Source: an uncultured Candidatus Saccharibacteria bacterium
GTDB lineage: Bacteria > Patescibacteriota > Dojkabacteria > SC72 > WJKH01
DNA length: 64,000 nucleotides
Reading direction: 5' to 3'
Assembly (NCBI GenBank): GCA_964602665.1
Contig: CAZRRH010000002.1
Coordinates: 62,171-126,170 of the forward strand
Positions 8,265-52,049 of the stretch are shown here, one piece after another; the stretch's first letter is position 1; each line of letters starts with the position of its first letter. Both the position numbers and the translations under genes were made by a program. The notes under the pieces were generated by a model. It was not told where the DNA came from. It worked only from the letters and a program-made list of their open reading frames with translations, and ran no database searches.

Positions 8265-9427
8265 AAATAATTGTTACAGGAGGAGGAAGTGGTGGCCATG
8301 TTTCACCCGCAGTTGCTGTTATAGAAAAGTTACAGGAAATAAAGGATTATGATATCTTATATATTGGAGGAAGGGCCGTTTCACAAAGCGTTTCTAATTC
8401 AATAAGCATTGAAGAGAAAATTTTTGCCAATAAAGATGTAAAAAAAGTGTTTATAAGAGGAGGTAAATTGCAAAGGAAATTTAGGTGGTCTAGTTTTAAA
8501 CTGCTTTTTGGCGTTTTTGGAGGATTTATAGATGCTTACAGGCAGATAAAGAAATTTTCGCCAGAGTTGATATTTTCTACGGGAGGATATGTAACAGTGC
8601 CTGTTTGTATTGTTGGTTGGCTAAAAAAAGTTCCAATATACATACATGAGCAAACCGCAGGAGTTGGGCTGACTAATCGAATAGTAGGCAAGATAGCGAC
8701 TAAAATCTTCATCTCATTTGAGCAGTCTGCAAAATATTTTGACTCAAAAAAAACAATTTTAGTCGGGAATATTGTAAGACCTGCTATTTTTAAAATAAAT
8801 TCTAAAACTGATTTGTCTAAGCAAATAGCTAAAATGAAAGAAATTCGTAAACCAATTGTATTTATAGCAGGTGGAGGGCAGGGCTCTCATTTTATAAATT
8901 TGCTAGTCAGACAGATGCTTATTTATGCACTTATGGATTTCCAAATTGTCTTGCAGACTGGCGAAAATGATCAGTACAAAGATTTTGATATTTTTATAAG
9001 AGAAAAGCTAAAATTATCAAGTAAATTATGTGATTCTTTCGTTCCAGTAAAGTATATATATGAAGACGACATTGGTTATGTTTTTAAAAATGCCGATGTC
9101 TATGTTGGCAGAGCAGGTGCAAATTATGTCTACGAAATGGGAATTTACCGCAAGCCATCTTTATTAATCCCTATCCCTTGGGTTACTAACAACGAGCAGG
9201 TTAAGAATGCACAGGTACTAGTTGATTGTGGTATAGGGAGGATTCTACCACAAGGTGAGCTTACTGCAGAGAAATTACATCAGGAAATAAAAAAGTTTCT
9301 TGGTGATCTGAACTCGGGCAAGATTGTTGCCAACGAATCCGAAATCACCAAGAATTTTAAGACAGATGCGTTAAATACGATTATTACTAATATTGAGAAT
9401 CGTAATAATCTTGTGTTCGGAAAATAA
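8261..9427 (+). CDS. murG: UDP-GlcNAc:lipid I N-acetylglucosaminyltransferase MurG
   Basis: The N-terminus is IIVTGGGSGGHVSPAVAV and the C-terminal GT28 domain carries a GRAGANYVYE motif. Translationally coupled to ftsW. Confidence 0.8.
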   Translation: MKIIVTGGGSGGHVSPAVAVIEKLQEIKDYDILYIGGRAVSQSVSNSISIEEKIFANKDVKKVFIRGGKLQRKFRWSSFKLLFGVFGGFIDAYRQIKKFSPELIFSTGGYVTVPVCIVGWLKKVPIYIHEQTAGVGLTNRIVGKIATKIFISFEQSAKYFDSKKTILVGNIVRPAIFKINSKTDLSKQIAKMKEIRKPIVFIAGGGQGSHFINLLVRQMLIYALMDFQIVLQTGENDQYKDFDIFIREKLKLSSKLCDSFVPVKYIYEDDIGYVFKNADVYVGRAGANYVYEMGIYRKPSLLIPIPWVTNNEQVKNAQVLVDCGIGRILPQGELTAEKLHQEIKKFLGDLNSGKIVANESEITKNFKTDALNTIITNIENRNNLVFGK

Positions 9428-10910
9428 GCTTTAATTTAATATCTCCATCTAAGCCTAATTCCTCATTCTTTTTGTCTATATATTCTTTATCATCTTCGTA
9501 AATAGATCCATCATCATAATTTTTCTCTGGTTCTTTAGTAAAGGTTTTATTCTTTGGATCATATTTATAAGTGTAAGTTGTTTTATCTTCATCTTCATCT
9601 GCATCTTTTTGATAATAAAATTCTATATCGATCTCTGGATAATCTGTAATATTAAAATAAATGCAGTTATTATCTATTTCTCTAGCTACGCTATAAGATG
9701 CTTTTCCATCCAGATCTGTGACTAAATAATCATTTTTTTCTTCTATTAATATCTCTTTATTAAGGATCTCAATGTAGTAAATATAATCTGATTTATTCCA
9801 AGACCTTATGACTTTTGTCTCTCCCGTTTTAAGATCTTGTTTTTTTAAATTTAGATAAATATGACTAAAATAGCCTTCTTGATTGTCATATTTGCAATTG
9901 GATGAACAGTAAAAAGATATATCTGAAGTATATAAATAGACAGTGTTGTTTTCTTCTACTAGACCAAGCATTAATGTAGATGTCGCAGTTAACAGATCTT
10001 TGTCTCCAGTAAATCTTGGAGCCTCATTACCTGGGTAGATAAACTTTGCCAACTCAGTTTTTGCTCCAGATGAAAGATTTATTGTTATAACTGATTCTGT
10101 AATAAGCATTTCAGGAGAATTTTCATAATGTCCAAGAGTTACATCTATGTATGCGACATTATTTATTATTGATATTTTATCACTAATAATGAAATAACTA
10201 TCGGAATCTTCAAGACTTGTTAGAAGAATGGTATGTTTTGGAGTTGTGGATTTTTGATTTAGATCAAAAATATAGAGATTAACATTGCAAGGATTGCTGT
10301 TTTCATCCTGATAATTATAACTAAAAGCATATGGCCAAGCAAATAAGGTGTCTTGAACAATTTTAAACTCAACTTTTGTATATGAACTGGTGAGACAATT
10401 TGAATCGTTTTTAATAATGCTTGTTTTATTGGCAAAAAGTTCAAGGGTCTTTGTTTCTAAATTGTATCGAAATATCGAGCCATCTTTTACAAAATACAGG
10501 AAATCTTTATGGACATAAACATTTTTTAGGTAAGAATCATAAAAATAGTACTTATAAGACTGTTCTCCAATTGTATTTACTATTTCTTGATTTTCATCAT
10601 CAAAGATAACTAGCTCTGGTGATGTAAATTCATTTATTATGTCATAAGTTAGACTGTAATCTTTTGTACCCTCATCTTCTATCTTTTGCGTAGAAACGGG
10701 TGGAGTATAAGGGACTGTATCATCGCAACATTTCGATGCAACTTTGGGCGATACCAAAGCTTTTACATTATTGATAAATGCGTCAAGGAACAATATCCCG
10801 GCAAAGCCATAAATAAAGCAGTATATAGATACTGATAGAACGATAAAAAGCTGCATTAATAAACTGTTTGCCCTTAATGCAGAAAAGAGTGTTTTATTAT
10901 TTTTTTTCAT
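9387..10910 (-). CDS. membrane-anchored hypothetical protein with an acidic C-terminal tail
   Basis: 507 aa with an N-terminal TM anchor and a beta-rich ectodomain. The tail is D/E/Y/K-rich (DADEDEDKTTYTYKYDPKNK...). Confidence 0.4.
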   Translation of the reverse strand: MKKNNKTLFSALRANSLLMQLFIVLSVSIYCFIYGFAGILFLDAFINNVKALVSPKVASKCCDDTVPYTPPVSTQKIEDEGTKDYSLTYDIINEFTSPELVIFDDENQEIVNTIGEQSYKYYFYDSYLKNVYVHKDFLYFVKDGSIFRYNLETKTLELFANKTSIIKNDSNCLTSSYTKVEFKIVQDTLFAWPYAFSYNYQDENSNPCNVNLYIFDLNQKSTTPKHTILLTSLEDSDSYFIISDKISIINNVAYIDVTLGHYENSPEMLITESVITINLSSGAKTELAKFIYPGNEAPRFTGDKDLLTATSTLMLGLVEENNTVYLYTSDISFYCSSNCKYDNQEGYFSHIYLNLKKQDLKTGETKVIRSWNKSDYIYYIEILNKEILIEEKNDYLVTDLDGKASYSVAREIDNNCIYFNITDYPEIDIEFYYQKDADEDEDKTTYTYKYDPKNKTFTKEPEKNYDDGSIYEDDKEYIDKKNEELGLDGDIKLKLIFRTQDYYDSQY

Positions 10911-11057
10911 AAATACATTATATAAAAATTAACTAACTATTACAACGATATAATATCTAAAAAGTAACAAAATGTACTTTTGACAATGAAAAAGAGCATT
11001 GCAAATCATGATGAAAATATGTTAATATATATAGTGATAAAATAATCATAAAAAGCT

Positions 11058-13487
11058 ATGCCAGAACAAATAAATATAATGGATTACTTCTCGCAAAGAG
11101 CAAGTAATTCGCTACAAAAATCAGCAGAAATCGCAGTAAATGCCGGAAGTAATAAAATCGATACTGAGCATTTGCTTGCAGGAGTTCTTTCTGAAGATGA
11201 GGTCGTTAAAAGAGTCATAAAAGAGCTCAAGCTTGATATAGAACTTTTACAAAAGCAGCTGTCTGAATATATTGGTGAGGACGAGGATAGGGAAATCTCG
11301 TATGAACAAACACCGACGCTATCTCCTAGAGTAAAACAAGTTTTGCAACAATCTTTTATGGAATCTCGCAACTTAGGTCATAACTATATTGGAGGTGAAC
11401 ATATACTTTTGGGACTAATATCTGAAGGAGAAGGATTGGCTTCACAACTTTTTGTTAAATATGGTGTTGATTATAATCAAGCACGGCAAGCTGTTGTTAA
11501 AGTCGTCGGAGAGGGTGATGAAAAGGGTGAGAAAATAACCGAAAAATCAGAAACGCCAAATTTAGACAAATACTCTCGTGACCTAACACAATTGGCGTAT
11601 GATGGCAAAATTGATCCGATAATAGGTAGAGCTGATGAGATAACTCGGGTTATACAAATACTATCGCGTCGTAAGAAAAACAATCCTGTGTTAATTGGAG
11701 AACCTGGAGTTGGTAAAACAGCTATTGCAGAAGGGTTGGCTTATAGGATATCAAAAAATAATGTCCCAGATATCCTAAGAGATAAAAGAGTAAAAGAGCT
11801 TGATGTCGCGTTATTAGTCGCAGGTGCTAAATTTAGAGGTGAATTTGAAGAACGCGCAAAGAAGGTTATAAAAGAGCTACAGTCCACAGGTGGACAGATA
11901 ATTCTTTTTATAGATGAGTTACACACAATTGTTGGATCGGGTGCATCAGAAGGACAAATGGATCTTTCTAATATGTTAAAACCTGCTCTTGCTCGTGGAG
12001 AGCTCAAAGTAATTGGCGCAACAACTTTAAACGAATACAAGAAATATATAGAGAAAGATTCTGCTTTGGAGCGACGATTTCAGCCTGTACTTGTTAATGA
12101 GCCAACAGTTGATCAGACAATAGATATTCTCAAAGGACTTCGGGATAAATATGAAGCTCATCATAAGGTAAAAATAACTGACGAGGCAATTGTTAGTGCC
12201 TCAATTATGTCTGATAGATACATAAAAGATAGATTTCTTCCAGATAAGGCAATTGATTTGATAGATGAGTCTGCAAGCAAGGTTCGTATTGAGTCTTCAC
12301 TTGTTCCCGATGAGATCGCAACTTTACAAGACGAGATTGAGAAGCTTGAGAAAGAGAGAGAAGCTTACAGCAGGGCGGGTGAGCATGAGAAAGGCGCTCA
12401 ATTAAAAGTGCAAATCGAGAAATTAAAAAGTCAATTACAACCGCTTAACGACCAGTGGAGCAAGAAAAAAGGGACGGGTACTCCAACAGTAACAGCAGAT
12501 TCAATTGCGGATTTAATATCATTACAAACAGGGATACCAGTTAGCCAGCTAAAATCAGAGGATAAAGAGAGACTTTTGCACTTAGAGGAAGAATTACATA
12601 AAAAAGTTGTTGGTCAGGATGAAGCAGTTAAGGCCGTGTCTGAGGCTGTACGCAGAGCAAGAGTTGGCCTTAAAGATCCTAATAGACCAATAGGCTCATT
12701 TTTGTTTATGGGGCCAACAGGAGTAGGCAAAACATTGTTAGCTAAAACGCTTGCTTGGCAAATATTTGGTGATGAAGAAGCAATGATTAGGCTTGACATG
12801 AGCGAATATATGGAGAAATTTGCAGTAAGCAGAATGGTTGGGTCTCCTCCTGGTTATGTTGGATACGAGGAAGGAGGTCAGCTTACAGAAGCAGTACGAA
12901 GACAACCATATAGTGTTATTTTGCTAGATGAGATAGAGAAAGCTCACAGTGATGTTTTTAATATTTTGCTTCAAATTTTGGACGACGGGCGTCTTACTGA
13001 TGCTAAGGGGAGAACTGTTGATTTTAGAAATACAATTATAATCGCAACTAGTAATATAGGTTCTGATTTGATTATGGACTCCCTAAAAGGAGGCAAAGAT
13101 CCTGATTGGGATAGGCTCAAAGAAAAGATGATTGACAGATTAAAAAGTCATTTCCGACCAGAATTTTTGAATAGACTTGACGATGTTGTTATCTTTAGAA
13201 AGTTAGAAAAAGCTCAGATAAGAGAAGTCGCTAAAATTTTAATTGATGAAGTGGTTAGAATGCTTAAGGCACAAGGTTTTGAGCTAATTGTTACAGATGC
13301 TGTTCTTGATCATTTGGCTGATATTGGATACGATCCTGAATTTGGTGCAAGGCCAATGAGAAGAGTAATACAAGAGAGTATTGAAAATAAATTAGCTGAT
13401 GGATTGCTTAAGGGAGATTTTAAGACGGGACAGAAGATTACTGTGGATTTTAAAGAGGGGAAGGTTCTTTTAAATTCTAAATTTTAA
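11058..13487 (+). CDS. clpC: ATP-dependent Clp protease ATP-binding subunit ClpC (Clp_N plus two AAA+ modules)
   Basis: The Clp_N repeat is [19 protein letters not shown]. Walker A motifs are [15 protein letters not shown] and [15 protein letters not shown]. Sensor/arginine-finger regions are present. At 809 aa the middle domain is ClpC-length. The last codons and stop are supplied by a repeat element. Confidence 0.85.
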
Positions 13488-30026: not shown

Positions 30027-30659
30027 ATGAAAAAGCTTTTACCGTATATAATAATACTGACATCTTTTGTCCTCTCGTTATTTTCTTTGAGCAATTATCC
30101 TTATAAATATGCTGTACATTGGGGAATAACCGGAGAAGCTGATGGATTCGCAACAAATCGATTTGGGCTGTTTTTCATTCCAATAATGCTTCTTGTATTG
30201 CAGGTATTTCTTGTCCTTGTGCCCAAAATTGACCCAAAAAAGAAAAACATCGAAAAGTTTAGTGGCGCATATGAACGATTTATACTGTCTTTTCATCTTT
30301 TGTTCCTTTATTTACAGATAATTATGTTTGTGTGGAATGTAATTTCTGAATTTAACTTTACACAGGTTACTGGCTTAGGTATGGGTCTGTTTTTTATCAG
30401 CATAAGCGATCTTATAAAACATGCAAAATCAAATTACACAATAGGCATTCGCACTCCGTGGACATTGGTAAATGAGCAGATCTGGGATAAAACTCATCAA
30501 CTAGGTGCTAAACTAATTAAGTATATCTCAATAATTGCTATTATAACATTGCCTTTTGCTAAATATTCATTCTTTATTCTTATCGGAGGGGTTTTATTGT
30601 CATTTCTTTTTCTGACATTTTATTCATTCTATTTATTTAAAAAGGATGTTAAGAAATAG
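30027..30659 (+). CDS. polytopic membrane protein (SdpI/DUF1648-like)
   Basis: 210 aa. The N-terminus HWGITGEADGFATNRFGLFFIPIMLL...PKIDPKKKN resembles the SdpI/YfhL family. Low confidence. Confidence 0.35.
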   Translation: MKKLLPYIIILTSFVLSLFSLSNYPYKYAVHWGITGEADGFATNRFGLFFIPIMLLVLQVFLVLVPKIDPKKKNIEKFSGAYERFILSFHLLFLYLQIIMFVWNVISEFNFTQVTGLGMGLFFISISDLIKHAKSNYTIGIRTPWTLVNEQIWDKTHQLGAKLIKYISIIAIITLPFAKYSFFILIGGVLLSFLFLTFYSFYLFKKDVKK

Positions 30660-31143
30660 TTTCATGAATAAGCAAGAAATAAGAGATAAGGTAAAAAAAA
30701 TCAAAATAAGCGATAAAGATAGTAGATCAGCACAGATTAGAGCAGAAATAGTCAAAATAATCGCAAATAGAAATTCTCGAAAAGTATTTATTTATCAAGA
30801 ACTCTCTGATGAAATCGCAGTTTACGAAATTGTTAAATTACTGTCTAATATTTCATTTTATATTCCGATTTTTACATCTAAATGGCAAATAATTTCCAAT
30901 GATAGTAAAGAGCTTTTTGATAATGTAAATGATGCAGGATTTGATAAAAACGATATTTGTATTGTTCCCGGGCGAGCTTTTACTATTAGTGGTTGTAGGG
31001 TAGGCAGGGGTGGGGGATACTATGACAGATACCTTGTCGACTCTATTTGTTATAAAATCGGTGTTTGTTTTAGGGAGCAGATTTTTGAAGAATTGCCTTT
31101 TGAGAAACACGACATTACAATGGATATTGTTTTGGCTGCTTAA
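30646..31143 (+). CDS. 5-formyltetrahydrofolate cyclo-ligase (MTHFS)
   Basis: C-terminal family motif VPGRAFTISGCRVGRGGGYYDRYL. Confidence 0.6.
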   Translation: MLRNSFMNKQEIRDKVKKIKISDKDSRSAQIRAEIVKIIANRNSRKVFIYQELSDEIAVYEIVKLLSNISFYIPIFTSKWQIISNDSKELFDNVNDAGFDKNDICIVPGRAFTISGCRVGRGGGYYDRYLVDSICYKIGVCFREQIFEELPFEKHDITMDIVLAA

Positions 31144-32010
31144 TTATACCGATAAATCTTTTAAGATATATTTGAACATGCGGACAATTGGATCCATACC
31201 AAAAGATCCTGCACCAATACCCATTCCAGGAGAATTGTTTATCTCGATTATGAAGAACTCTCCATTTTCATCTATAGCAATATCAAGCCCAACAAAATTT
31301 ATTGGGATGGCGTTAAATACCCCTTGAGAAAAAGCCTCTAATTTCTCCAGTATATTTGCATCTTGCACAAGAACACCTTTTGCGTTCTCCCAGTGCAAAG
31401 GACTTAAGTTGCCGACAAAAATTGCATCGTCAATGTTCTTTTCATAAGCAAACATAAGCTTTCTTTTATAAGCTATTACTCTGTATTCCTTTTTGATTTT
31501 AATGTATTCTTGTGCGATAGCAATATAATCAAAAGCACCAAATTTGCGTGATCTACTAAATATCCTTCTTAATGCTGAAAGAATATCTGCTCTGTTATTG
31601 CATAAGTATACATTATGTCCTTGCGAGCCAAAATTTCTTTTTAAAACGATTGGATATTTAAAGTTTTTTTCGATATCGTTGGCAATGGTTTTTCTTGTTG
31701 GGAACTCCAATAGTGGTAAGTATTTTTCGTTTAAATTAGGTGCGAGATAGCTTTTCCACTTAGGTACTTTTATATGTGGTGCTAAAACAGTGTATGAAAG
31801 GTCTTTGTCTTTGCATATTTTTACAATATCTTCTCTGTTAAATGCTTTGTAATGATGTGTAAAGAAAAGATTTGTTTTATTGGGAAGGGTTACTTTGACA
31901 AGAATTTGATGCTTATGAATAATCTCATACTGAATATTTAGCTCTTTGCAAGCCTTTATTAGAGCTAGTTGCGATATCTTTAATCCGGTTCTTGCATCGT
32001 TTTGTTCCAT
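31144..32010 (-). CDS. ATP-grasp enzyme (RimK/alpha-L-glutamate-ligase-like)
   Basis: The ATP-grasp fold shows in IVLKRNFGSQGHNVYL, EYRVIAYK and FVGLDIAIDENGEFFIIEINNSPGMGI. Co-directional with and adjacent to fhs and glyA. Confidence 0.55.
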   Translation of the reverse strand: MEQNDARTGLKISQLALIKACKELNIQYEIIHKHQILVKVTLPNKTNLFFTHHYKAFNREDIVKICKDKDLSYTVLAPHIKVPKWKSYLAPNLNEKYLPLLEFPTRKTIANDIEKNFKYPIVLKRNFGSQGHNVYLCNNRADILSALRRIFSRSRKFGAFDYIAIAQEYIKIKKEYRVIAYKRKLMFAYEKNIDDAIFVGNLSPLHWENAKGVLVQDANILEKLEAFSQGVFNAIPINFVGLDIAIDENGEFFIIEINNSPGMGIGAGSFGMDPIVRMFKYILKDLSV

Positions 32011-32102
32011 TATATAATTATACTATAAAACAGCTGATTTTACAAGAGTTCCACTGCATAAGGGTCACCAATAATTCATAATAATAAAGGCAAATTAATT
32101 TT

Positions 32103-33806
32103 CTACGACAACCCGACAATATTACCATCTTCATCTATGTCTATAATTTGCGCATTTGGATGAGAGGATAACCCGGGCATAAGGCGCATTTTGCCAAGCA
32201 TTGCGACTATAAAGCCGGCTCCTGCAGAGACTTTTACTTCTCTTACAGTTATATCAAAGTTTGTTGGTCTGCCGACTTTAGTTGGATCATCAGATAAAGA
32301 AAGATGAGTTTTGGCCATGCAGATTGGAAGTTTATCCATACCATTTTGCTCTATTAATTTGATCGATTTATCAGCTTCTTCGGTATATTTTACGTTATTT
32401 GCACCGTAAATATTCTGCGCAATTTTGCTTATTTTATCTTTAATGCCTTCTTTTTCATCATACAGAAGTTTAAAATTCTTATCACCTTTTTCTATTACTT
32501 GTACGACAGCGGTTGCTAGATCAATTCCGCCATCAGCTCCTTTGGCAAAAACTTCGCTTATTACGCTTTGATCAGCCCCAAGTTCACTTGCGCGATTCTT
32601 TACATACTCGACCTCTTTATCTGTGTCTGTTGGAAATCTGTTTATCGCAACAATTACAGGTACACCAAATAACTTAGCGTTTTCAATCTGTTTAGCGAGA
32701 TTTCCGATTCCTTGCTCGATACTCTCAATATCTTCTTGTATAAGTTTTTTGGGCAATTTTTTGCCTGGTTTAATATCGAATTTACCGCTGTGGTACTTAA
32801 GTGCTCTTACTGTTGCGACTATTATTACAGCATCAGGCGTTAGTCCGCTATATCTGCATTTTATATTCATAAATTTCTCCATACCAATATCAGCACCAAA
32901 ACCAGCTTCTGTGATAAGATAATCTGCCATCTTAATTCCGATAAGATCTGCTATTATCGAGCTGTTACCGTGTGCGATATTTGCAAATGGTCCGGCATGT
33001 ATAATTGCTGGTGTATTATCTAGTGTTTGCACGAGATTTGGTTTTATCGCGTCTTTCATTATTACCGCCACACTTCCCGCAACTTTTAGATCTCCTATTG
33101 TGACAGGTTTACCGTCTGTATTGTATGCAACTACAGTTCTTGCAACTCGAGCTTTTAGATCTTGCAAATCATTAGCAAGTGCAAGTATTGCCATTATCTC
33201 TGAAGCTACGGTTATGTCAAACCTTGTCTCTCGTTCTATACCAAACTCTTTTGGGTCTTTATTATCACCAATGCGGACTTTGCGAAGTGCCCTGTCGCTT
33301 ACATCAAGGACTCTTGGCCATATAATTTTATCAGGATCTATTTTGAGTTTATTTCCTTTAAGAAGATGGTTGTCTATTATTGCTGCAACAAGGTTATGTG
33401 ATGCAGTGATTGCGTGTATATCGCCAGTGAAATTTAGATTAAACTCCTCCATTGGAATAACTTGTGCGTATCCACCACCTGCTGCACCACCTTTTATGCC
33501 AAATGTCGGGCCCATTGATGGCTGTCTTATTGCTATCACGCTGTTTTTACCAATTTTGTGCATAGCCTGTCCAAGTCCAACTGTGGTTGTTGTTTTGCCC
33601 TCACCAAGTGGAGTGGGCGTTATTGCTGACACAACAATGTATTTGGCGTTTGGGCGATTTTGCAATCTCTTGCGTACTGATAAATCGATTTTGGCTATAT
33701 ATTTGCCGTACTGATCGTACTCATCAGGATTAAGACCTAGCTTTTTTGCTATGTCTGTTATTGGGAGTTTTTTTGCTTCCCGTGCAATTTCCAAATCAGT
33801 TTTCAT
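32103..33806 (-). CDS. fhs: formate--tetrahydrofolate ligase
   Basis: FTHFS signature PTPLGEGKTTTTVGL with full-length similarity. I place the start at the internal Met (MKTDLEIAREAK), which removes the overlap with glyA that the ORF-track start at 33851 creates. Confidence 0.85.
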   Translation of the reverse strand: MKTDLEIAREAKKLPITDIAKKLGLNPDEYDQYGKYIAKIDLSVRKRLQNRPNAKYIVVSAITPTPLGEGKTTTTVGLGQAMHKIGKNSVIAIRQPSMGPTFGIKGGAAGGGYAQVIPMEEFNLNFTGDIHAITASHNLVAAIIDNHLLKGNKLKIDPDKIIWPRVLDVSDRALRKVRIGDNKDPKEFGIERETRFDITVASEIMAILALANDLQDLKARVARTVVAYNTDGKPVTIGDLKVAGSVAVIMKDAIKPNLVQTLDNTPAIIHAGPFANIAHGNSSIIADLIGIKMADYLITEAGFGADIGMEKFMNIKCRYSGLTPDAVIIVATVRALKYHSGKFDIKPGKKLPKKLIQEDIESIEQGIGNLAKQIENAKLFGVPVIVAINRFPTDTDKEVEYVKNRASELGADQSVISEVFAKGADGGIDLATAVVQVIEKGDKNFKLLYDEKEGIKDKISKIAQNIYGANNVKYTEEADKSIKLIEQNGMDKLPICMAKTHLSLSDDPTKVGRPTNFDITVREVKVSAGAGFIVAMLGKMRLMPGLSSHPNAQIIDIDEDGNIVGLS

Positions 33807-33825
33807 CACTTTTCTTAAGATTATT

Positions 33826-35070
33826 TTAATTATTAATTCCCGGTATTTCAAATTTGCTCATATAGGAGGCTACTTTAGCTCTTAATTTGCTCAAATAAGA
33901 CTCATCTTTTCTATTTTTTAGTGCTTTGTCAATTGAGTCAGCGACAAACTCCATGTCTTTCTCAACTAAACCTCTTGTGGTTATTGCTGGAGTACCTATT
34001 CGGACGCCTGATGGATCCCAAGGCTTGCGAGGATCGTTTGGTATACCGTTTTTATTTAGTGTAATATTTGCAAGCTCCAAAGTATCGCTAGCGATTTTGC
34101 CTGTGAGACCATTTTGTGTTGTCACATCGACAAGCATAAGGTGGTTATCTGTTCCGCCTGATATAATTCGATAGCCCTTGTCCATAAGTAACTTTGATAA
34201 ATAAGCTGCATTAGCAATAATCTGCTTAGCATATGCTTTGAAATCATCCTGGCTTGCTTCTTCTAACGCAACGGCAATTCCTGCAGTAGTGTGATTATGT
34301 GGTCCACCTTGCAATCCTGGGAATACAGCTCCGTCAATCTTCTCGGCAAACTCTTTTTTGCACATAATCATCGCGCCTCTTGGTCCTCTTAGCGTCTTAT
34401 GTGTAGTAGTAGTAACGACATCAGCGTATGGGAATGGATTTGGATGGACTCCTCCTGCGATTAATCCTGCTATGTGAGCTATATCTGCAACGAGAATTGC
34501 TCCGACTTCATCGGCTATCTCTTTAAATTTCGCAAAATCTATTATGCGTGGATAAGCTGACCCTCCTGCCCATATAAGTTTAGGCTGGTGCTTTTTTGCG
34601 ATATCTCTAACTTCATCGTAATCTATATAGCCGTTTTTGTCTACACCGTAAGATGCAGAATTAAAATATTTACCAGTAATGCTAACTTTAAAACCGTGTG
34701 TGAGATGGCCACCAGCAGATAATGCCATCCCAAGTGTGCGATCGCCGGCGTCAAGAAATGCAAAATGCACAGCGAGATTTGCGGGAGAACCTGAATATGG
34801 TTGGACATTAGCATGCTCTGCATTAAATAACTTGCAAGCACGCTCTTTTGCAAGATCTTCTATCTCGTCGATAAACTCATTGCCTGCATAATATCTTTTA
34901 CTTGAGTATCCTTCTGAGTATTTGTTTGTTAAAATAGAACCCATTGCCTCAAGTACTGCTGATGAGACATAGTTTTCGGAAGCGATTAACTCGATTCCTT
35001 CTTTTTGGCGTTTAGCCTCGCTTTTTATAGCGTTGTAGACCTTTTGGTCTTGGTTTTGTAAAGTGGACAT
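33826..35070 (-). CDS. glyA: serine hydroxymethyltransferase
   Basis: Motifs NKYSEGYSSKRYYAGNEFID, HLTHG and the PLP-Lys region VVTTTTHKTLRGPRG. Confidence 0.9.
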   Translation of the reverse strand: MSTLQNQDQKVYNAIKSEAKRQKEGIELIASENYVSSAVLEAMGSILTNKYSEGYSSKRYYAGNEFIDEIEDLAKERACKLFNAEHANVQPYSGSPANLAVHFAFLDAGDRTLGMALSAGGHLTHGFKVSITGKYFNSASYGVDKNGYIDYDEVRDIAKKHQPKLIWAGGSAYPRIIDFAKFKEIADEVGAILVADIAHIAGLIAGGVHPNPFPYADVVTTTTHKTLRGPRGAMIMCKKEFAEKIDGAVFPGLQGGPHNHTTAGIAVALEEASQDDFKAYAKQIIANAAYLSKLLMDKGYRIISGGTDNHLMLVDVTTQNGLTGKIASDTLELANITLNKNGIPNDPRKPWDPSGVRIGTPAITTRGLVEKDMEFVADSIDKALKNRKDESYLSKLRAKVASYMSKFEIPGINN

Positions 35071-35142: not shown

Positions 35143-35502
35143 TTAAATAAGTGGTTTTTTCTTTGAACAGCTGATAACAATTTTTGTTAGTATTTTAATT
35201 ATTTCTTCAATATCTATAAGTAAATTAGAGCATTCTGCATCAACTAAGTTACTTTCTTTAAGCAAATTTAGCCAGTATCTTGTCTCTCTTGCTTCTTTTG
35301 ATGCGATTGACATCTTATGTGTAAAGTCCTTTTTACTTTGTCCTGCAAGAGCCTCTTCAATATTTGCGCCAATGCTCGTACCGCTTCTAAGTAATTGCTT
35401 AGATAGAATATATTCTTTTTCTGCTATTAAAATTTTATAAAATTTAATTATGTTTAAGCTAAAAACAAACGCCTTCTTTTGAATTATATTTTCTGTTTTC
35501 AA
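35143..35502 (-). CDS. four-helix-bundle protein of the '23S rRNA intervening-sequence protein' family
   Basis: The family pattern is KEYILSKQLLRSGTSIGANIEEALAGQSKKDFTHKMSIASKEARETRYWLNLL. It uses a TTG start. Confidence 0.6.
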   Translation of the reverse strand: MKTENIIQKKAFVFSLNIIKFYKILIAEKEYILSKQLLRSGTSIGANIEEALAGQSKKDFTHKMSIASKEARETRYWLNLLKESNLVDAECSNLLIDIEEIIKILTKIVISCSKKKPLI

Positions 35503-45389: not shown

Positions 45390-47654
45390 ATGAAAAGATC
45401 TCTTTATATTATATATACGGTTTTTTTTATAATATTTTTTATCTTGCCATTGTTTTATCTTTTTTGGAAAAATAAGGGCTCTTCTATTCTTGGGCTTGAT
45501 TTGATAAATTATTATAATCCTGAAAAGAATCTCAAAGAAATTTTTTATATGTGGATTGAGAACGGCGGGAATGGATTTGGGTTTTATTTACCTATAAGAA
45601 TATTTGAAATTTTGAATGTCTCGATAAGCGTTTTTTTAAAGAAGTTGGGGGTTTCATTTAATGCTTGGTATAAAATATATTATTTTTTATCATTGATAAT
45701 TGGATATATTGGAATTTTTAAGCTTCTTAGTATGTTTTATAGAACAAAGATCATGTCTATTAAATTATTACTCGTTTCATATATATATATATTAAATCCA
45801 TTTACTTTAATAATAATTTATAACCCCGTTCCTTACTTTATAAATTTTATGGCTTTAACTCCATGGATTGCCTTTTTTTATATTCGAATTATTCGTGATC
45901 CTAACAGTAAAAGCTTATTATTGTTTTTAGCACTTAGTATTTTCTTAAATGTGGCATTTGCAAATTTAGCCTTCTTGGCTACATTAGTAATTCTCTTATT
46001 GATAATTAGCGTATTAGAAATAAAGAATATTTATAAAAATAGGAAAATACTTACTATTTATTTAATTATAATTTTTCTATTCAACTCATATTGGACTTTG
46101 AACTTAGGTCATTTTTATATTTTTAATAGAACAGACTTATTTGAAAGTGAGATAAACATTATTAAAACGGTCTTTGATATTGAGTCGATAAGTAAGTATG
46201 CTAAACTATCTAATATTTATCGTGGAATCGGAGGTTGGGATTTTTTTAATTCTCCTTTTGGTAAGCCATCGATAAGCTTCTCCTCGTTTTATAAGCAAGT
46301 TGTGCCAAGTATTTTGTTGTTTTTAAATCTGGTGCCTTTTCTAATGATTATTATTGACAAGAAGCATCAAGGTAGAAAAAGCATAATCATGGGTTCGTAC
46401 TTGCTAATAATATTTATGATATCTTATGGATTAGATAGTCTATGGTTTAAATCTGGAATTGTTAAGTCTGGTTTATATATGTTTAGAGATACTTTTAGTA
46501 AATTTGGAATGCTAATTCCATTTTTAATGACTATTTCTTGGTGTGAAACGATTAAGAGTAGCGGAAAAACAGCAATTTTTTTTCTTAGCCTTGCCATGCT
46601 TATAAATTCATATCCTCATTTAACAGGACAATTTATTAATAACGACTATTACTCTAATTATCCAAATGAATATAAGATTATTGGCAAAATAATCGATGAA
46701 GATTTTTCGTCAAATAGAGCTCTAAAGGTTCCAATCCCGACTTTTATTGCCATAGGAGAGAAAAATGATACATTGGCATGGGATTATTGGGGACCAGCTT
46801 TTTTATATGAGTTCACTGAAAAAAGGACGATAGAGATTCCTTCAAGAGCTGTTAATCGTTACTCAGATAAATACATGGAGAATTTCGTTGAAAATATAAA
46901 TGAAGAATATTTTTGTGAAAACTTAGATGAGATAAACATAAAACATATTCTTTTCAATAATAATTATTATGACTATTTATCTCCGAATGATAATGAAAAG
47001 ATTAAAGATAAATATTTTAAGATAGTAAATTCTTGTCAAAAGCTGGAACTTGTTTATGAAAGTAATGGTTATTACCTTTTCATAAACAAGGATGATTTAA
47101 GAGCAATTATTGATGGGAAAAACTTGTCTTTCCATAAAAATAATCCTACAAAATATAGTTTAAAAGTAGATAAAATAAAAGATAAGTTAAAGATAAACTT
47201 TTATGATTCATTTGATTATAATTGGCAATTGTATTTAAAAAGTAATAAAGAGTTTGCATCTGAAATGTTTTTAAATGCAGAAAAAAAACATATTGGCAAT
47301 TCAATAGAATATATTTCTAAAGATAAATTTGCTTTTAAGCTTACTGATCTCTCATACCTTTGGCGTAAGCCAATATTTGAAGATACGCATGAACTAGTAT
47401 ATGACTATGCAAACGGGTGGACAATAGATCCTGAGTACATAAAAGCAAACTATCCACCAGAATATTACCACGAGAACCCAGATGGCTCAATAGACATACA
47501 GTTGACCCTGTACTTTAAACCCCAGTCATACTTTTATCTTGGCATAATAATCTCCGTCACGACATTTACAGGATGTATAATATACCTAATAATAGACACA
47601 ATTAAAACTAAACGGCGCAAAAAAGATACAAATGAACCTCAAAACAAAAAGTAA
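45390..47654 (+). CDS. YfhO-like GT-C fold membrane glycosyltransferase (N-terminal polytopic domain, C-terminal extracytoplasmic domain, terminal TM)
   Basis: 754 aa with about 12 N-terminal TM helices, a roughly 300-aa soluble C-terminal domain and a final TM helix. It has the same architecture and C-terminal motif (GWxIDP...LTLYFxPQ) as its neighbour at 47632. Confidence 0.45.
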   Translation: MKRSLYIIYTVFFIIFFILPLFYLFWKNKGSSILGLDLINYYNPEKNLKEIFYMWIENGGNGFGFYLPIRIFEILNVSISVFLKKLGVSFNAWYKIYYFLSLIIGYIGIFKLLSMFYRTKIMSIKLLLVSYIYILNPFTLIIIYNPVPYFINFMALTPWIAFFYIRIIRDPNSKSLLLFLALSIFLNVAFANLAFLATLVILLLIISVLEIKNIYKNRKILTIYLIIIFLFNSYWTLNLGHFYIFNRTDLFESEINIIKTVFDIESISKYAKLSNIYRGIGGWDFFNSPFGKPSISFSSFYKQVVPSILLFLNLVPFLMIIIDKKHQGRKSIIMGSYLLIIFMISYGLDSLWFKSGIVKSGLYMFRDTFSKFGMLIPFLMTISWCETIKSSGKTAIFFLSLAMLINSYPHLTGQFINNDYYSNYPNEYKIIGKIIDEDFSSNRALKVPIPTFIAIGEKNDTLAWDYWGPAFLYEFTEKRTIEIPSRAVNRYSDKYMENFVENINEEYFCENLDEINIKHILFNNNYYDYLSPNDNEKIKDKYFKIVNSCQKLELVYESNGYYLFINKDDLRAIIDGKNLSFHKNNPTKYSLKVDKIKDKLKINFYDSFDYNWQLYLKSNKEFASEMFLNAEKKHIGNSIEYISKDKFAFKLTDLSYLWRKPIFEDTHELVYDYANGWTIDPEYIKANYPPEYYHENPDGSIDIQLTLYFKPQSYFYLGIIISVTTFTGCIIYLIIDTIKTKRRKKDTNEPQNKK

Positions 47655-49902
47655 AAAAACATATACCACAATAATTCTTATCCTACTAATCATCCTCTCC
47701 ATCCTCAACCTTCTCCCACTTAACCACATATATTCTCAATATGACATCGCACAGCAAATTGTTCCACGCCAGATCTTAGAGCAAATATACCTGTGGTCAC
47801 AAAGAGATCTAGGTGCAATGGCAACATCTTACTCCTCACTCCAATACTATCTTCCTCTCACAATCATCCCTACCACGCTCCACACAGCATACTATTACCT
47901 CATATTCCTCATCCCAACATACCTTGGCATAACATACTACCTATCCCAAAATAAAACGCAAAAATTAAAAAACAAAACTTACCTGCTCTCTCTAGTCTAT
48001 ACCATCTCCTTCTTCCCAGTATACTCATTCTTCTATCAGGGAGGACATTTCCCATTTCATAACCTATACTCACTATTTCCACCAATATTCATCCTATACT
48101 ACTTATACATAAGCAAAACAGAAAAAGAGGAGGCAAAAAGCTATCAATTTAAAATTCAAAACTTAAAATTTAAAATTGATAATAATTTATTAATCCTCCT
48201 TGCCATTCTTTTTCTAACTAACATAGTCAACTCCAATATCCCGTATTTTTTCTCGCTTAACCTAGTTTTAATACTAATTGCAGTAGTTAATTACATCATC
48301 CTAAAATCACGCAAAGCGGTTCGTACAATACCTTACTTGTTCAAAATAGCTAAATTTTACATACTATATTTCTTAATTACCGTTTGGAGCACAGTGCCAC
48401 AAATAATACAGCATTTAAACACATATTCATCGTTTATGAGACAGCAAGAGCACTTTCCCATAGACCAATGGCTGTTTTGGCAGTCAATGAATTTCACAGA
48501 GAGCTTGACGATGTTTTGGGAGACTCGCAGATACCTGGATCAGATACCTCTAACTGTATATGGCGCACTGGCCATTACATTTCTAGCCTTTGTCGTTTTA
48601 ATCGCAACAAAAAAGAGAACAGCGATACTTACGATACTTTGGGCAACATATATATTTGTCATATTTTTAGCCAATAAAGGGGCATACTGGCTTCCGCAGC
48701 GTTGGACACTTGCCATTTTCAAGCTTCCATTTTTGGCACCAATAAGATCATATGATAAGACGCTAATTTTTATGCCATTTCTTTTGTTTGCGATAATATC
48801 TTACTATATCCTGACTGATTACGAGAAAAACAAGAGATTAAAGCAAGTCATGCTTGCAGTACTATGCATCTCACAGATAATCGCCTCATATCCACTATGG
48901 AGTGGCCAGTTAGTCACAAAGTACTCACAACAGCATGCTAAAGGTGAGGATTACACAACTGCAGAGTATTCGCCCGTTGTACAAATCCCACAAGATTATT
49001 ATGATGTAGCACAAATATTAAATGCCAAGTATGATAATGGTAGAAATCAATTCCGTGTTATGCGCTTGCCATATTCTGTAGTAAACTCGGCGGGTTGGGC
49101 TAACTACCCTAAGTGGAAAGTCAACAGCGCTGATCCTACAATACAGCTATTTGATATGCCTTCCGTTCAGCCACAGTCCTTTCCTGATGAAGCTTTTGGT
49201 TTGTGGAATTGGGGATTGGAGTGGAATGAGGATGATAAATCGCAGAGCATGTGGCTTCTTAATTTTATGACATTTACTAATAGTCGATATATTATTTATC
49301 ATAAAGATGTTAAGCCGGAGTTTATTGCTGATACGATTGACAAGATAAACTACTACAAAGAGCAGGGGTTGATAACGCAGATTTATAGTGGTGAGTATAT
49401 TGACGCTTATGAATTATCTCGGATTTACATTGGCGATCATTTTTATATCGCTGATAAAATCGAGTATTTTAGTGGCGACTACGATAATTATGCAAGCCGG
49501 CTTTACAATTTGAATGCTAACTCGGTTTTTATACATAGCGATAGAATTACACAAGAACAGTTAGTTTCGCTATATAATATTAAAAAATCAGATGCACAAA
49601 TAAGCTATGAGTATATTAGCCCGATAAAATATAAAATAACCGTAAAAAATGCGACAGAGCCGTTCGTTTTGGTTATGCGAGAGGGTTATCACAAAGGCTG
49701 GAGGCTTACTGGTGCAAGCTGTGATCATATATTTGCAAATGGTTTTGCTAATGGATGGATAATTGATCCTGGTGATAGCGATGAGCTTGACTTAACTCTC
49801 TATTTTATACCGCAAACATTATACTGGGTTACTTTTGCTATATCCTCTTTGACTTTTTTATGGGTTTTATATATGATAATCATGATTAAAAAAAAGAAAT
49901 GA
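47632..49902 (+). CDS. YfhO-like GT-C fold membrane glycosyltransferase, tandem paralog
   Basis: 756 aa with the same topology as 45390..47654. Its 5' third has unusual G-depleted codons, and an in-frame repeat-family copy lies at 48156-48187. Confidence 0.45.
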   Translation: MNLKTKSKKTYTTIILILLIILSILNLLPLNHIYSQYDIAQQIVPRQILEQIYLWSQRDLGAMATSYSSLQYYLPLTIIPTTLHTAYYYLIFLIPTYLGITYYLSQNKTQKLKNKTYLLSLVYTISFFPVYSFFYQGGHFPFHNLYSLFPPIFILYYLYISKTEKEEAKSYQFKIQNLKFKIDNNLLILLAILFLTNIVNSNIPYFFSLNLVLILIAVVNYIILKSRKAVRTIPYLFKIAKFYILYFLITVWSTVPQIIQHLNTYSSFMRQQEHFPIDQWLFWQSMNFTESLTMFWETRRYLDQIPLTVYGALAITFLAFVVLIATKKRTAILTILWATYIFVIFLANKGAYWLPQRWTLAIFKLPFLAPIRSYDKTLIFMPFLLFAIISYYILTDYEKNKRLKQVMLAVLCISQIIASYPLWSGQLVTKYSQQHAKGEDYTTAEYSPVVQIPQDYYDVAQILNAKYDNGRNQFRVMRLPYSVVNSAGWANYPKWKVNSADPTIQLFDMPSVQPQSFPDEAFGLWNWGLEWNEDDKSQSMWLLNFMTFTNSRYIIYHKDVKPEFIADTIDKINYYKEQGLITQIYSGEYIDAYELSRIYIGDHFYIADKIEYFSGDYDNYASRLYNLNANSVFIHSDRITQEQLVSLYNIKKSDAQISYEYISPIKYKITVKNATEPFVLVMREGYHKGWRLTGASCDHIFANGFANGWIIDPGDSDELDLTLYFIPQTLYWVTFAISSLTFLWVLYMIIMIKKKK
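48156..48187. repeat. in-frame copy of the A/T-rich repeat family inside the 47632 CDS (AATTTAAAATTCAAAACTTAAAATTTAAAATTG)
   Basis: It encodes YQFKIQNLKFKIDNNL within the ORF. The motif matches the arrays at 35590-35680. Confidence 0.5.
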
Positions 49903-52049
49903 AAAAAAAGATACTACTAACAGTCCTTGTTACAAGCGCTATATCAGCACTCCTTCTAGCTTTGTCATCGTATATGAGCAAAGACTTGCAGGTCAAGCCA
50001 ATTGATTCGCTCGATCAGCTGTATTTATCTAAGTATATTTCTCAAGGTAGTGCAGGACTAAGTGTGTCGACTACAGATCAAAACGCAGATAAACTTGTCC
50101 CATACACCAAGGAGTCTTATGTATCAGCACAAACCGCACAAAACACTCCTTATTCTAATTATAAATATGAGGGCGCGTATTTACCAAAAGAATCGTATTA
50201 TAAAAGGTTAGATTTCTCAGAGTATTATGGCCTTAAAACGGTTATATCCCTTTGTAAAGACGAGTATTTTTACACATCAGAGGTTGGAGAGGAATTTATT
50301 ACTCACAATCAGTCAAGAGATCATGAATATCTTCTTAACCGCAAATTAAGCGATATTGCAAAATGCAATGTCTCGGTACTTAAGTTTGATGATACAAATC
50401 TACTTCAAAATCTCCAAACCAGTAAAGATTTTCCTGCTGTTTTAAGTGATCACAGACTGGCACTCTCAAGCGAGAGAAGTTACACTATTGATGAGAATGG
50501 GCAAGCAGGTATATTGATAGAAGTTAAGGAAAAACCAGCATATTATGCTCAAAGATATCTTGCTACGATAAAACCATTTGACGATTATCTTCTTGAGTTT
50601 AAGTATCAAGCGCATGACACCCTAAATCTTCGTTATGGAGTTAGATTATTTACACAAAAGTATCTTGATAGACAAACCGCAATGGAGCAAGAAGATTATG
50701 ATCCTATTGCCTGGAGTGATATTGACAATGAGTACACTGAATACTATTTTGACATTGCAAATGAGCAGTCGCATTTATTACAGCAGGTCGTTTCGACAAA
50801 CTTAGAAGATGTCATCGGAGTAGAGGTGATATATTATGCTGATTCGTGTACAAATGCCAGATATTCTTTTGGGATGCCTTCTCTCTACTCTTTGGTTTCA
50901 CAAGATAGTATTGATGAATATAAACAGGAATACTCTTTGTTGGCTGAACTTGTAAAAGTAGATTTACCTGCTAAATTGCCTGTATCCGAATTGGAATCTC
51001 CGTTTTATATTCTCAATAAGTCTGTGCAGTCAGAAGATGGCATATATACTACAGATGTCTACATAGCTAGTAATGACTATGCTCTGTATTTACTTGAGTT
51101 TGATGGCAAAGCATATACTATTACTGGTGAATTTGGCGAAATGGTGGTTGAAGATTATGATTGTGGTAAGGTTGTTATTGGCGATATAGCACTTGGCAAG
51201 ATAATGAATTTATCATTAAAGAGCGATAAGCCGGTTGATAGCATATCTTTGGAAAAGGCTACCTTTTACGATCCTTCATATTCAGAAACGCTTTTCAAAC
51301 TTGATAAAACTCAGTTTACAAGTGGCGATTATAAGTTAGTTCTATTAGAGAAACCTTATTCTCTCAAATATTATATAGCGGATTCTGATTATTATCATTA
51401 TATGACAAATGGTAATCAGAACTTATTTCTAATAAATAGTGATATAACTATATACCCCATAGGGTATAAAACAGCCGAAAGTATTAGAATATTGGCCTTT
51501 TTGATTATACCCATAGGGGTATTTATTATGCTTGTTTATCTTAACCGGTCTAAAATCGTTGGAATCTATAAAAAGATTAATAAATCTTATATCTATATAA
51601 ACACGCTTTTTTCAAGGAAGATTAGTATTCCACTGCTTAAATTCGTTTTTGACTCAAAGGAGATAAAATATAAGCATATTTTTGATACCAAAAGCAAATT
51701 TTGGGGTGAAATTGACATGATAATTGAGAAGATTGTTACTGATGTTATTAACAAGCCACTTGGGCTGATTTTTATCGTTGCAGGATGTATTCCTTTGATA
51801 TTTGCCCTATCTATACCTCTTAAATCTATTGCTATTCTGATCGTTTTCGCAATTATGTTGATTTGGCTTCTTTACGGATGGGATAGTAGGGTTTTGGGTC
51901 TTGTAGCGTTGATTTTTTTGTGTGCAGTGCCTGTTTTGCTGATTCTTAAAAAAGATGGCTATGCTGAAGGTTTTGCCATTATGGTCTACTTTTTCCTTGT
52001 TGCTAATGTCGCCGTGCAGGTTAAAGAAGGCCTAGAGCATAAGCAGTAG
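49899..52049 (+). CDS. large membrane protein (N-terminal anchor, about 500-aa extracytoplasmic domain, C-terminal polytopic domain), unknown function
   Basis: 716 aa with N-terminal TM and signal and about six C-terminal TM helices. Composition resembles the higher-GC patch. Confidence 0.4.
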   Translation: MKKKILLTVLVTSAISALLLALSSYMSKDLQVKPIDSLDQLYLSKYISQGSAGLSVSTTDQNADKLVPYTKESYVSAQTAQNTPYSNYKYEGAYLPKESYYKRLDFSEYYGLKTVISLCKDEYFYTSEVGEEFITHNQSRDHEYLLNRKLSDIAKCNVSVLKFDDTNLLQNLQTSKDFPAVLSDHRLALSSERSYTIDENGQAGILIEVKEKPAYYAQRYLATIKPFDDYLLEFKYQAHDTLNLRYGVRLFTQKYLDRQTAMEQEDYDPIAWSDIDNEYTEYYFDIANEQSHLLQQVVSTNLEDVIGVEVIYYADSCTNARYSFGMPSLYSLVSQDSIDEYKQEYSLLAELVKVDLPAKLPVSELESPFYILNKSVQSEDGIYTTDVYIASNDYALYLLEFDGKAYTITGEFGEMVVEDYDCGKVVIGDIALGKIMNLSLKSDKPVDSISLEKATFYDPSYSETLFKLDKTQFTSGDYKLVLLEKPYSLKYYIADSDYYHYMTNGNQNLFLINSDITIYPIGYKTAESIRILAFLIIPIGVFIMLVYLNRSKIVGIYKKINKSYIYINTLFSRKISIPLLKFVFDSKEIKYKHIFDTKSKFWGEIDMIIEKIVTDVINKPLGLIFIVAGCIPLIFALSIPLKSIAILIVFAIMLIWLLYGWDSRVLGLVALIFLCAVPVLLILKKDGYAEGFAIMVYFFLVANVAVQVKEGLEHKQ

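Follow-up and report, generated by a model that had tools for sequence, protein, structure and literature searches.

A RimK/LysX-like ATP-grasp ligase gene beside 5-formyltetrahydrofolate cyclo-ligase in a clade of CPR bacteria: a candidate modifier of folate tails

The folate genes and their ATP-grasp neighbour

In the window, the whole 64-kb stretch of CPR DNA that was analysed, a gene for an ATP-grasp ligase lies among folate genes, arranged as follows:

30027-30659, + strand: SdpI/DUF1648 membrane protein, its 3' end overlapping the start of the next gene by 14 nt
30646-31143, + strand: 5-formyltetrahydrofolate cyclo-ligase (5-FCL, MTHFS), 165 aa; PF01812 85.6 bits
31144-32010, - strand: ATP-grasp carboxylate-amine ligase of a RimK/LysX-like family without characterised function, 288 aa
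32011-32102, - strand: spacer of 92 nt between fhs and the ATP-grasp gene
32103-33851, - strand: fhs (formate-tetrahydrofolate ligase); PF01268 845.7 bits, NF010030 819.7 bits
33826-35070, - strand: glyA (serine hydroxymethyltransferase, SHMT); PF00464 544 bits, NF000586 589 bits

Open reading frame calls reproduced exactly the coordinates that an earlier, sequence-only reading of this DNA had given for 5-FCL, the ATP-grasp gene, fhs and glyA. That reading also described the ATP-grasp gene as co-oriented with fhs and glyA and abutting 5-FCL, and this arrangement was confirmed, with 5-FCL itself on the opposite strand. The ATP-grasp gene is downstream of glyA and fhs and meets the 5-FCL gene tail-to-tail, the convergent stop codons being directly adjacent at 31143/31144. 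The cyclo-ligase is bona fide by the TIGR02727 equivalog model (91.2 bits against a cut-off of 84.9) and is probably co-transcribed with the SdpI/DUF1648 gene, a neighbour that is not kept in the related loci L001, L002 or L003. The real start of fhs is probably the ATG at 33806, the PF01268 match beginning at residue 17 and the L001 ortholog having 567 aa. Co-transcription of the ATP-grasp gene with fhs is uncertain because the 92-nt gap between them holds a promoter-like site (sigma-70-like TTGTAA-17-TATAAT at 32045-32017, a consensus match only); no terminator-like site was detected in a scan of this spacer.

The reading frame at 31144-32010 on the minus strand is a real, conserved gene. 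Full-length homologues of its product were found at 98%, 74%, 52% identity and below, and the 74% identity between the window protein and its L001 ortholog is comparable to that of the glyA (78%) and fhs (82%) products. An AlphaFold (AF2) model of the 288-aa protein has a pLDDT of 93, and the three-domain ATP-grasp fold of the superfamily is present. Across 35 diverse family sequences K124, E175, R177, N201, S203-P-L-H206, D243, E256 and N258 are invariant; K124, E175, D243, E256 and N258 align to the RimK counterparts that serve as ATP and Mg2+ ligands, namely a lysine in the central domain and an Asp/Glu/Asn triad in the C-domain, with residue roles given by homology.

The earlier description of the protein as RimK-like stands at the superfamily level (PF08443, E 2.4e-11) and falls short of membership in the rimK_fam subfamily, to which the protein is related yet outside (TIGR00768, 75.2 bits, E 5.4e-21, against a cut-off of 143.4). 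The suggested kinship with archaeal MptN and CofF does not extend to orthology (28 bits against 350 for NF040720 and 27 against 300 for TIGR04443), and the archaeal analogy is therefore mechanistic only. The protein also scores below the cut-offs of the S6-modifying RimK equivalog PRK10446 (18 bits against 331) and of the LysX model TIGR02144 (42.9 bits against 275.6), though LysX/ArgX are its best structural match, and it lacks the similarity to Ddl models expected of a D-Ala-D-Ala ligase. A sequence search of the PDB returned marginal matches only, the best at E 0.005 to a biotin carboxylase-type protein, and was uninformative. A few members of the family bear an unrelated N-terminal extension of ~85 aa. 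Current annotations of the family are inconsistent, among them 'RimK', 'YheC/YheD' and 'carbamoylphosphate synthase'.

The closest folds are those of LysX/ArgX and RimK. All of these enzymes extend a terminal glutamate by ligation of an amino acid, and a 'glutamate tail' substrate therefore fits. LysX/ArgX (PDB 5K2M, 3VPB, 3VPD) are of like size at ~280 aa and use ATP-grasp chemistry to form the bond at the glutamate carboxylate, but they share only 17-21% identity with the window protein and differ in the substrate loop; neither the window nor L001-L003 has a gene for a LysW-type carrier or for lysine/arginine (AAA-pathway) biosynthesis near the ATP-grasp gene. RimK, the S6 poly-alpha-L-glutamate ligase (PDB 4IWX, 5ZCT, 7QYR), gives the strongest superfamily-level match in Pfam and NCBIfam and aligns with an hhalign probability of 97% over 200 columns, its SNLHRGGA falling opposite GNLSPLHWEGA. 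Compared with RimK, however, the window protein has a two-residue insertion in the substrate loop and has lost the GG, its N-terminal domain is reduced so that structural alignments span ~230-240 of 288 residues, and a linkage to S6 is absent in its clade.

Genomic context across the family

Within the window's CPR clade, 5-FCL is the immediate neighbour of the ATP-grasp gene in four of the five lineages that could be judged. The two genes adjoin in the window, L001, L002, L172 and L003, and the cyclo-ligases of all five loci pass the TIGR02727 cut-off; L173, the sister of L003, lacks a 5-FCL neighbour. Assemblies GCA_015657875.1 and GCA_014729235.1 and a 1.13-Mb contig are among the carriers of the 5-FCL-linked gene. 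Three architectures are found. In one the pair is convergent and accompanied by fhs-glyA; in the other two the genes are co-directional and overlap, either followed by thyA-folA or standing alone. The ATP-grasp/5-FCL adjacency is kept across relatives at an ATP-grasp identity of only 45-52% between architectures and with fhs/glyA or thyA/folA nearby. In an NJ tree the 5-FCL-linked loci group as a single clade, and shared ancestry could therefore partly explain the linkage.

A metagenome scan with a CPR-only alignment recovered no further 5-FCL-linked lineage, just a duplicate of L001, and the best 150 of 246 strong family representatives include no Rosetta-stone fusion of ATP-grasp with 5-FCL. 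In L133 a glyA-thyA-folA group lies 5-7 kb from the ATP-grasp gene and was not counted as linkage because ribosomal and other genes intervene. Two candidates in L169 were rejected: a downstream reading frame of 198 aa, suspected of coding for a divergent 5-FCL, encodes a membrane-anchored protein of low complexity, and a neighbour labelled 'CofD' is YvcK and not the F420 enzyme. Replacement of the 5-FCL gene between the window and L001, where the two cyclo-ligases are 37% identical, was likewise dropped since another flanking gene is equally divergent (35%).

The association with folate genes that marks the window's clade is not seen in most cyanobacterial and other CPR members, and folate-related neighbours are lacking for most members overall (Nostoc, Microcoleus, Planktothrix, Chloroflexi and the sister CPR clade of L016, L169, L170 and L171). 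In Nostoc or Microcoleus the gene is monocistronic. Cyanobacterial neighbourhoods account for the bulk of the 80 genome loci. Their synteny is shared at the genus level only, with neighbours such as a metallophosphatase, a ~1470-aa reading frame and, judged by eye, a probable arginyl-tRNA synthetase; no partner gene appears across genera in these loci. Elsewhere VTC/DUF4956 genes neighbour the L173 copy and TatD the L016 copy, the distant member L147 sits in an operon of three ATP-grasp genes, and another distant member, L162, lies in a metG-TatD-rpsF context.

Folate genes recur outside the CPR. The Caldithrix copy (L026) lies 511 bp upstream of folC on the same strand, the FolC scoring 363 bits against TIGR01499, and in Nostoc (L006, L056) a paralogue array abuts a FolK-PabB fusion gene. 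By rough estimate, chance would yield ~0.2 such FolC/FolK-PabB matches among ~28 other lineages.

A candidate folate tail ligase and the alternatives

Folates need glutamylation for retention in the cell and efficient use, and the only bacterial enzymes we know of for this step are FolC and a CofE-like enzyme of Chlamydia. CPR/Patescibacteria are ultra-reduced and largely uncultured, keep folate-using enzymes and depend on salvage. The window protein has the ATP-grasp fold, conserved catalytic residues, a place in the RimK/LysX-like family and conserved gene linkage, and since this conserved enzyme gene sits among folate genes in the window and in its relatives, we infer that its product may well attach glutamate, or less probably another amino acid, to the folate tail, paired with 5-FCL in salvage. 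This is the reading tentatively preferred here. The suggestion of the sequence-only reading that the enzyme could polyglutamylate folate or a related pterin is partly supported: the link to folate stands, through the 5-FCL adjacency in three arrangements, the folC and folK-pabB neighbours and the closest folds.

By analogy with its nearest structural relatives, the ligase, taken to be active, would phosphorylate one of the carboxylates of a terminal glutamate and then couple it to the amino group of a second amino acid, for which L-glutamate is the likeliest candidate. In the window's clade the most likely acceptor is a reduced folate, modified at its glutamate tail. 5-FCL would return 5-formyl-THF, whether salvaged or generated by SHMT, to the active pool, and the predicted ligase would extend or cap the glutamate tail alongside it; a longer or capped tail should aid folate retention and affinity for Fhs, SHMT, ThyA and DHFR. 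The linkage formed may be alpha, on the precedent of RimK, MptN and CofF, or could involve the gamma-carboxyl, as used by LysX/ArgX. If this is true, a folate-dedicated ATP-grasp ligase would fill a gap in the reconstructed metabolism of CPR/Patescibacteria, folate would join H4MPT, F420 and methylofuran as the fourth cofactor that RimK-like ligases decorate, and a family comprising a few hundred sequence clusters would gain a function.

There is precedent for both the pairing and the chemistry. The folate set of a minimal folate-salvaging cell consists of FolT, FolC, 5-FCL, GlyA, FolD and Fmt (PMC6609329, which also cites the side reaction of SHMT), and because this set includes FolC together with 5-FCL, a tail ligase beside 5-FCL would make a sensible salvage module. 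MptN, CofF and MyfB are small RimK-like ATP-grasp ligases that add glutamate to the side chains of tetrahydromethanopterin, F420 and methylofuran, MptN and MyfB thus decorating C1 cofactors, and the products of MptN are alpha-linked (PMC8141765). Theirs is the mode of action proposed for the window protein and they too are encoded with cofactor-related genes, but MptN and CofF are not its orthologs and the cofactor here would be folate. To our knowledge, CPR bacteria, cyanobacteria and the other hosts of the family are not known to make H4MPT, F420 tails or methylofuran. Literature searches turned up no work that connects ATP-grasp with 5-FCL, nor any that connects CPR with folylpolyglutamate or folC.

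It is somewhat unlikely that the ligase is unrelated to folate, acting instead on a protein or peptide C-terminus or a small metabolite, or forming a dipeptide or oligo-amino-acid product, with the 5-FCL adjacency a gene order inherited in one CPR clade. Such an order would have had to persist at 45-52% identity through three rearranged architectures in which all other flanking genes differ; in two of them the reading frames are co-directional and overlap, the pair is flanked by further folate genes (fhs/glyA or thyA/folA), and FolC and FolK-PabB neighbours occur in unrelated phyla. The folate-unrelated reading gains from the majority of family members that lie outside any folate context, from the mixture of contexts (VTC/DUF4956 in L173, TatD in L016 and L162, the multi-ATP-grasp operon of L147) and from a substrate loop, GNLSPLHW, unlike that of every characterised RimK-like enzyme. 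In the window, moreover, the convergent pair is not one operon and the ATP-grasp gene may have its own promoter, which also counts against a folate role.

The folate tail reading can be pressed further, and its stronger forms are less probable. That the whole family is an unrecognised class of folate tail ligase, trapping salvaged folinate as glutamylated folate in FolC-less CPR and more broadly supplying a bacterial 'folylpoly-alpha-glutamate' activity, is unlikely; activity of that type is on record from biochemical work on E. coli in the 1980s, and E. coli has, as far as we know, no member of this ATP-grasp family. A strict replacement of FolC, in which the protein would be the sole folylpolyglutamate synthetase of FolC-less CPR, is distinctly improbable. 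The remark that FolC is absent from the window was borne out, with no match below E 1.7 in phmmer --max and tblastn searches using a verified FolC, and no Mur-ligase domain in the 36 window ORFs scanned against Pfam. FolC, the Mur-ligase-family dihydrofolate synthase/folylpolyglutamate synthase, shares the proposed role of adding glutamate to folates but is unrelated in fold and mechanism class, and its tails are gamma-linked, whereas the products of RimK, MptN and CofF are alpha-linked. Displacement by a non-orthologous enzyme has a precedent in the CofE-like CT611 of Chlamydia, an unrelated ligase that replaced FolC (PMC1971073), and the pairing with 5-FCL mirrors the FolC and 5-FCL of the minimal-cell salvage set (PMC6609329). 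However, the family and a genuine FolC coexist in at least one locus and genome, that of Caldithrix, and the family is widespread among cyanobacteria, themselves makers of folate; its general role therefore cannot be that of a replacement, and the family as a whole is not simply a FolC substitute.

Action on some other folate-related substrate, either addition of glutamate to pteroate or pABA in a DHFS-like salvage or decoration of a non-folate pterin, is very improbable. The Nostoc copies beside folK-pabB, a member of the pterin and pABA branches, would suit it, as may the placement of the CPR copies with folate-using and not folate-synthesising genes, but the CPR loci lack genes for pterin or pABA synthesis, and no enzyme of the RimK/LysX group is known to us to use an aromatic carboxylate as acceptor. 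That the enzyme modifies ribosomal protein S6, or another protein C-terminus, in the manner of RimK is hardly credible given the PRK10446 score, a much reduced pre-ATP-grasp N-domain and the absence of rpsF near the gene in the window and the 5-FCL-linked loci, even though the distant member L162 has rpsF two genes downstream, encoding an S6 that ends in Glu.

Gene cluster and ATP-grasp protein

The ATP-grasp ligase gene lies in a cluster of four genes for which the ORF map agrees exactly with the sequence-only reading:

30646-31143, + strand: 5-formyl-THF cyclo-ligase (5-FCL; TIGR02727 equivalog, 91.2 bits against a cut-off of 84.9)
31144-32010, - strand: ATP-grasp ligase, 288 aa (PF08443 RimK, E 2.4e-11)
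32103-33851, - strand: fhs (846 bits, Pfam/NCBIfam)
33826-35070, - strand: glyA (544 bits, Pfam/NCBIfam)

The map likewise bears out that the ligase gene shares its strand with fhs and glyA and abuts 5-FCL, with which it is convergent, the stop codons touching at 31143/31144. The 92-nt spacer between fhs and the ligase gene contains a promoter-like TTGTAA-17-TATAAT, and no terminator-like site was found in it. The called fhs start, a TTG at 33851, is probably wrong: the Pfam match begins only at residue 17 and the ortholog lacks 15 aa by comparison, so translation probably begins with the ATG at 33806, which would abolish the apparent glyA/fhs overlap. With a GC content of ~33%, the window looks like part of a reduced, low-GC bacterial genome.

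Other genes accompany the cluster. One for an SdpI/DUF1648 multi-pass membrane protein (30027-30659, +) runs 14 nt into the start of 5-FCL and is thus probably co-transcribed with it; this neighbor is not conserved in the related loci. A PF05635 (23S-rRNA-intervening-sequence-protein family) gene is found just upstream of glyA in the window (35143-35502, -) but between glyA and fhs in the related locus L001 (5728-6114), whose ATP-grasp is 74% identical, and this difference in position implies mobility inside one cluster. Three large ORFs in series (754, 756 and 716 aa; 45390-52049, +), whose ends overlap slightly, had no Pfam match at E <= 1e-5.

Sequence and predicted structure show the ATP-grasp protein to be a genuine and conserved enzyme. 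It has full-length homologues at 98%, 74% and 52% identity, down to ~31%, the closest named relative being in a Candidatus Dojkabacteria MAG, and the 74% identity to the L001 copy is comparable to that of glyA (78%) and fhs (82%). The AlphaFold model is confident (pLDDT 93.3). Six residues invariant in a 35-sequence alignment (K124, E175, R177, D243, E256 and N258) correspond by homology to the ATP/Mg and acyl-phosphate site, and a distinctive N-L-S-P-L-H motif (residues 201-206) is invariant in the same alignment. Among 1.84 billion cluster representatives searched with a profile, 246 proteins matched at E < 1e-30, the best 150 of which are all stand-alone and mostly 250-300 aa long (range 205-390). 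Relatives carrying the motif are present in ~276 of 185,579 species genomes, mainly Nostoc, Microcoleus, Planktothrix and other cyanobacteria, with a few candidate phyla radiation (CPR) bacteria, Caldithrix and Chloroflexi. Three homologues (P0157, P0170 and P0240) have in common a helical-looking N-terminal extension of ~85 aa. The family is uncharacterised, and its database names are inconsistent ('alpha-L-glutamate ligase', 'YheC/YheD family', 'carbamoylphosphate synthase large subunit').

Relation to known ATP-grasp ligases

The description of the enzyme as RimK-like holds insofar as the family falls in the RimK/LysX neighborhood of the ATP-grasp superfamily, yet it lies outside every curated subfamily.

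Scores of the ATP-grasp protein against curated models (bits; cut-off)
rimK_fam: 75; 143
LysX: 43; 276
MptN: 28; 350
CofF: 27; 300
E. coli-type RimK: 18; 331
Ddl models: 17.6 or less; 243-449

Alignment to E. coli RimK by hhalign (probability 97%) pairs the substrate loop SNLHRGGA with GNLSPLHWEGA, so that the family has a two-residue insertion and has lost the GG. Structural alignments span ~230-240 of 288 residues, and the pre-ATP-grasp domain at the N-terminus is reduced. RimK activates the alpha-carboxylate of a terminal glutamate on S6, whereas LysX/ArgX activate the gamma-carboxylate of the terminal glutamate on LysW. The RimK-like MptN and MyfB perform an equivalent reaction, with side chains of the cofactors H4MPT and methylofuran as acceptors (PMC8141765). 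The proposed parallel with MptN and CofF is one of mechanism, not of membership of either subfamily.

Linkage to 5-FCL and a possible role on the folate tail

The 174 related loci examined form 34 clusters at 70% identity, and a neighbor-joining tree places the window in one clade with L001, L002, L172, L174, L003 and L173. 5-FCL is the immediate neighbor of the ligase gene in the window, L001, L002, L172 and L003, and all five neighboring 5-FCLs score above the TIGR02727 cut-off (that of L172 was not among the called genes and was found by translation).

Gene orders around the ligase in the window's clade
Window, L001: glyA-(IVP)-fhs-ATPgrasp, convergent with 5-FCL
L002, L172: TspO-Rce1like-ATPgrasp-5FCL-thyA-folA, all co-directional, ATP-grasp and 5-FCL ORFs overlapping
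L003: ATPgrasp-5FCL, 8-nt overlap, unrelated flanks

From one architecture to another, identity is 45-52% for the ATP-grasps and 30-37% for the 5-FCLs. The 5-FCL neighbor is missing in L173, the sister of L003; L174 stops at a contig edge. No folate neighbor was found in the sister CPR clade (L016, L169, L170, L171). The 5-FCLs of the window and L001 (8887-9474) are only 37% identical, against 74-82% for ATP-grasp, fhs and glyA, and the window copy is 30 aa shorter; this may simply reflect fast evolution, since one other flanking gene (PRTase) is similarly divergent.

Because close relatives use a terminal glutamate and folate ends in one, a folate-tail ligase is the most economical reading, and as a prediction it is moderately supported. 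As in every close structural relative, the enzyme would activate the carboxylate of a terminal glutamate, here that ending a folate, and join an amino acid to it. The analysis shows the fold, the catalytic residues, the family placement and the gene linkage; from these we infer the substrate, the added amino acid and the type of bond: glutamate, or possibly another amino acid, would be placed on the folate tail, and the ligase and 5-FCL would act together in folate salvage and retention, a proposal we hold tentatively. The complete folate set of the JCVI-syn3A minimal cell comprises FolT, FolC, 5-FCL, GlyA, FolD and Fmt (PMC6609329). Our literature search found no paper tying an ATP-grasp enzyme to 5-FCL or CPR bacteria to folate glutamylation. 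If true, the folate-tail reading would extend the RimK-like type of cofactor-tail ligase to folate. A somewhat less likely alternative is that the ligase has no connection with folate and stands beside 5-FCL only through an inherited order of genes.

Outside the clade there are two independent matches to folate genes. In a Caldithrix MAG (L026 8838-11603) the ligase gene is followed after 511 bp, on its own strand, by a genuine FolC gene (TIGR01499, 363 bits), and in Nostoc sp. UHCC 0702 and NIES-4103 (L006 6970-12113; L056 about 9095-13093) three tandem paralogues are followed by a convergent FolK-PabB fusion (685-690 aa). Two such neighbors compare with ~0.2 expected by chance, a rough, order-of-magnitude argument rather than a formal test, which assumes ~28 other lineages with 2 immediate neighbors each and a genome in which ~15 of 5,000 genes concern folate. 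Cyanobacterial contexts otherwise reflect genus-specific synteny and are uninformative.

FolC and further neighborhoods

That the window lacks a FolC or other Mur-ligase gene was confirmed: a verified FolC query gave a best E of only 1.7 (phmmer --max and tblastn), and Pfam scans of 36 window ORFs detected no Mur-ligase gene. The idea that the ATP-grasp enzyme replaces FolC has a precedent in another protein, CofE-like CT611, shown by complementation of a folC mutant of E. coli (PMC1971073). However, FolC adjoins the Caldithrix copy and the family is common among folate-prototrophic cyanobacteria, so replacement is not its general role and, at best within the CPR clade, seems improbable. That the enzyme uses some other folate-related compound, for example pteroate or pABA, is more doubtful still. 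RimK-type modification of S6 is very unlikely, the equivalog score being too low and rpsF linkage being absent from the window's clade.

More distant loci have other partners. The order metG-ATPgrasp-TatD-rpsF occurs in L162 (8530-12200), where the S6 protein is long (164 aa, ending ...EELVVE). A TatD-family hydrolase adjoins the ligase in two distant CPR members, co-directionally in L162 and convergently with overlap in L016 (10001-11661). In L147 (2028-5429), and likewise in L148 and L150, a tight operon encodes a 107-aa ORF and three different ATP-grasp enzymes (an ATPgrasp_ST-type of 433 aa, a bona fide RimK-type with RimK_N of 309 aa and a 280-aa member of the present family), which may constitute a multi-step amino-acid ligation pathway.
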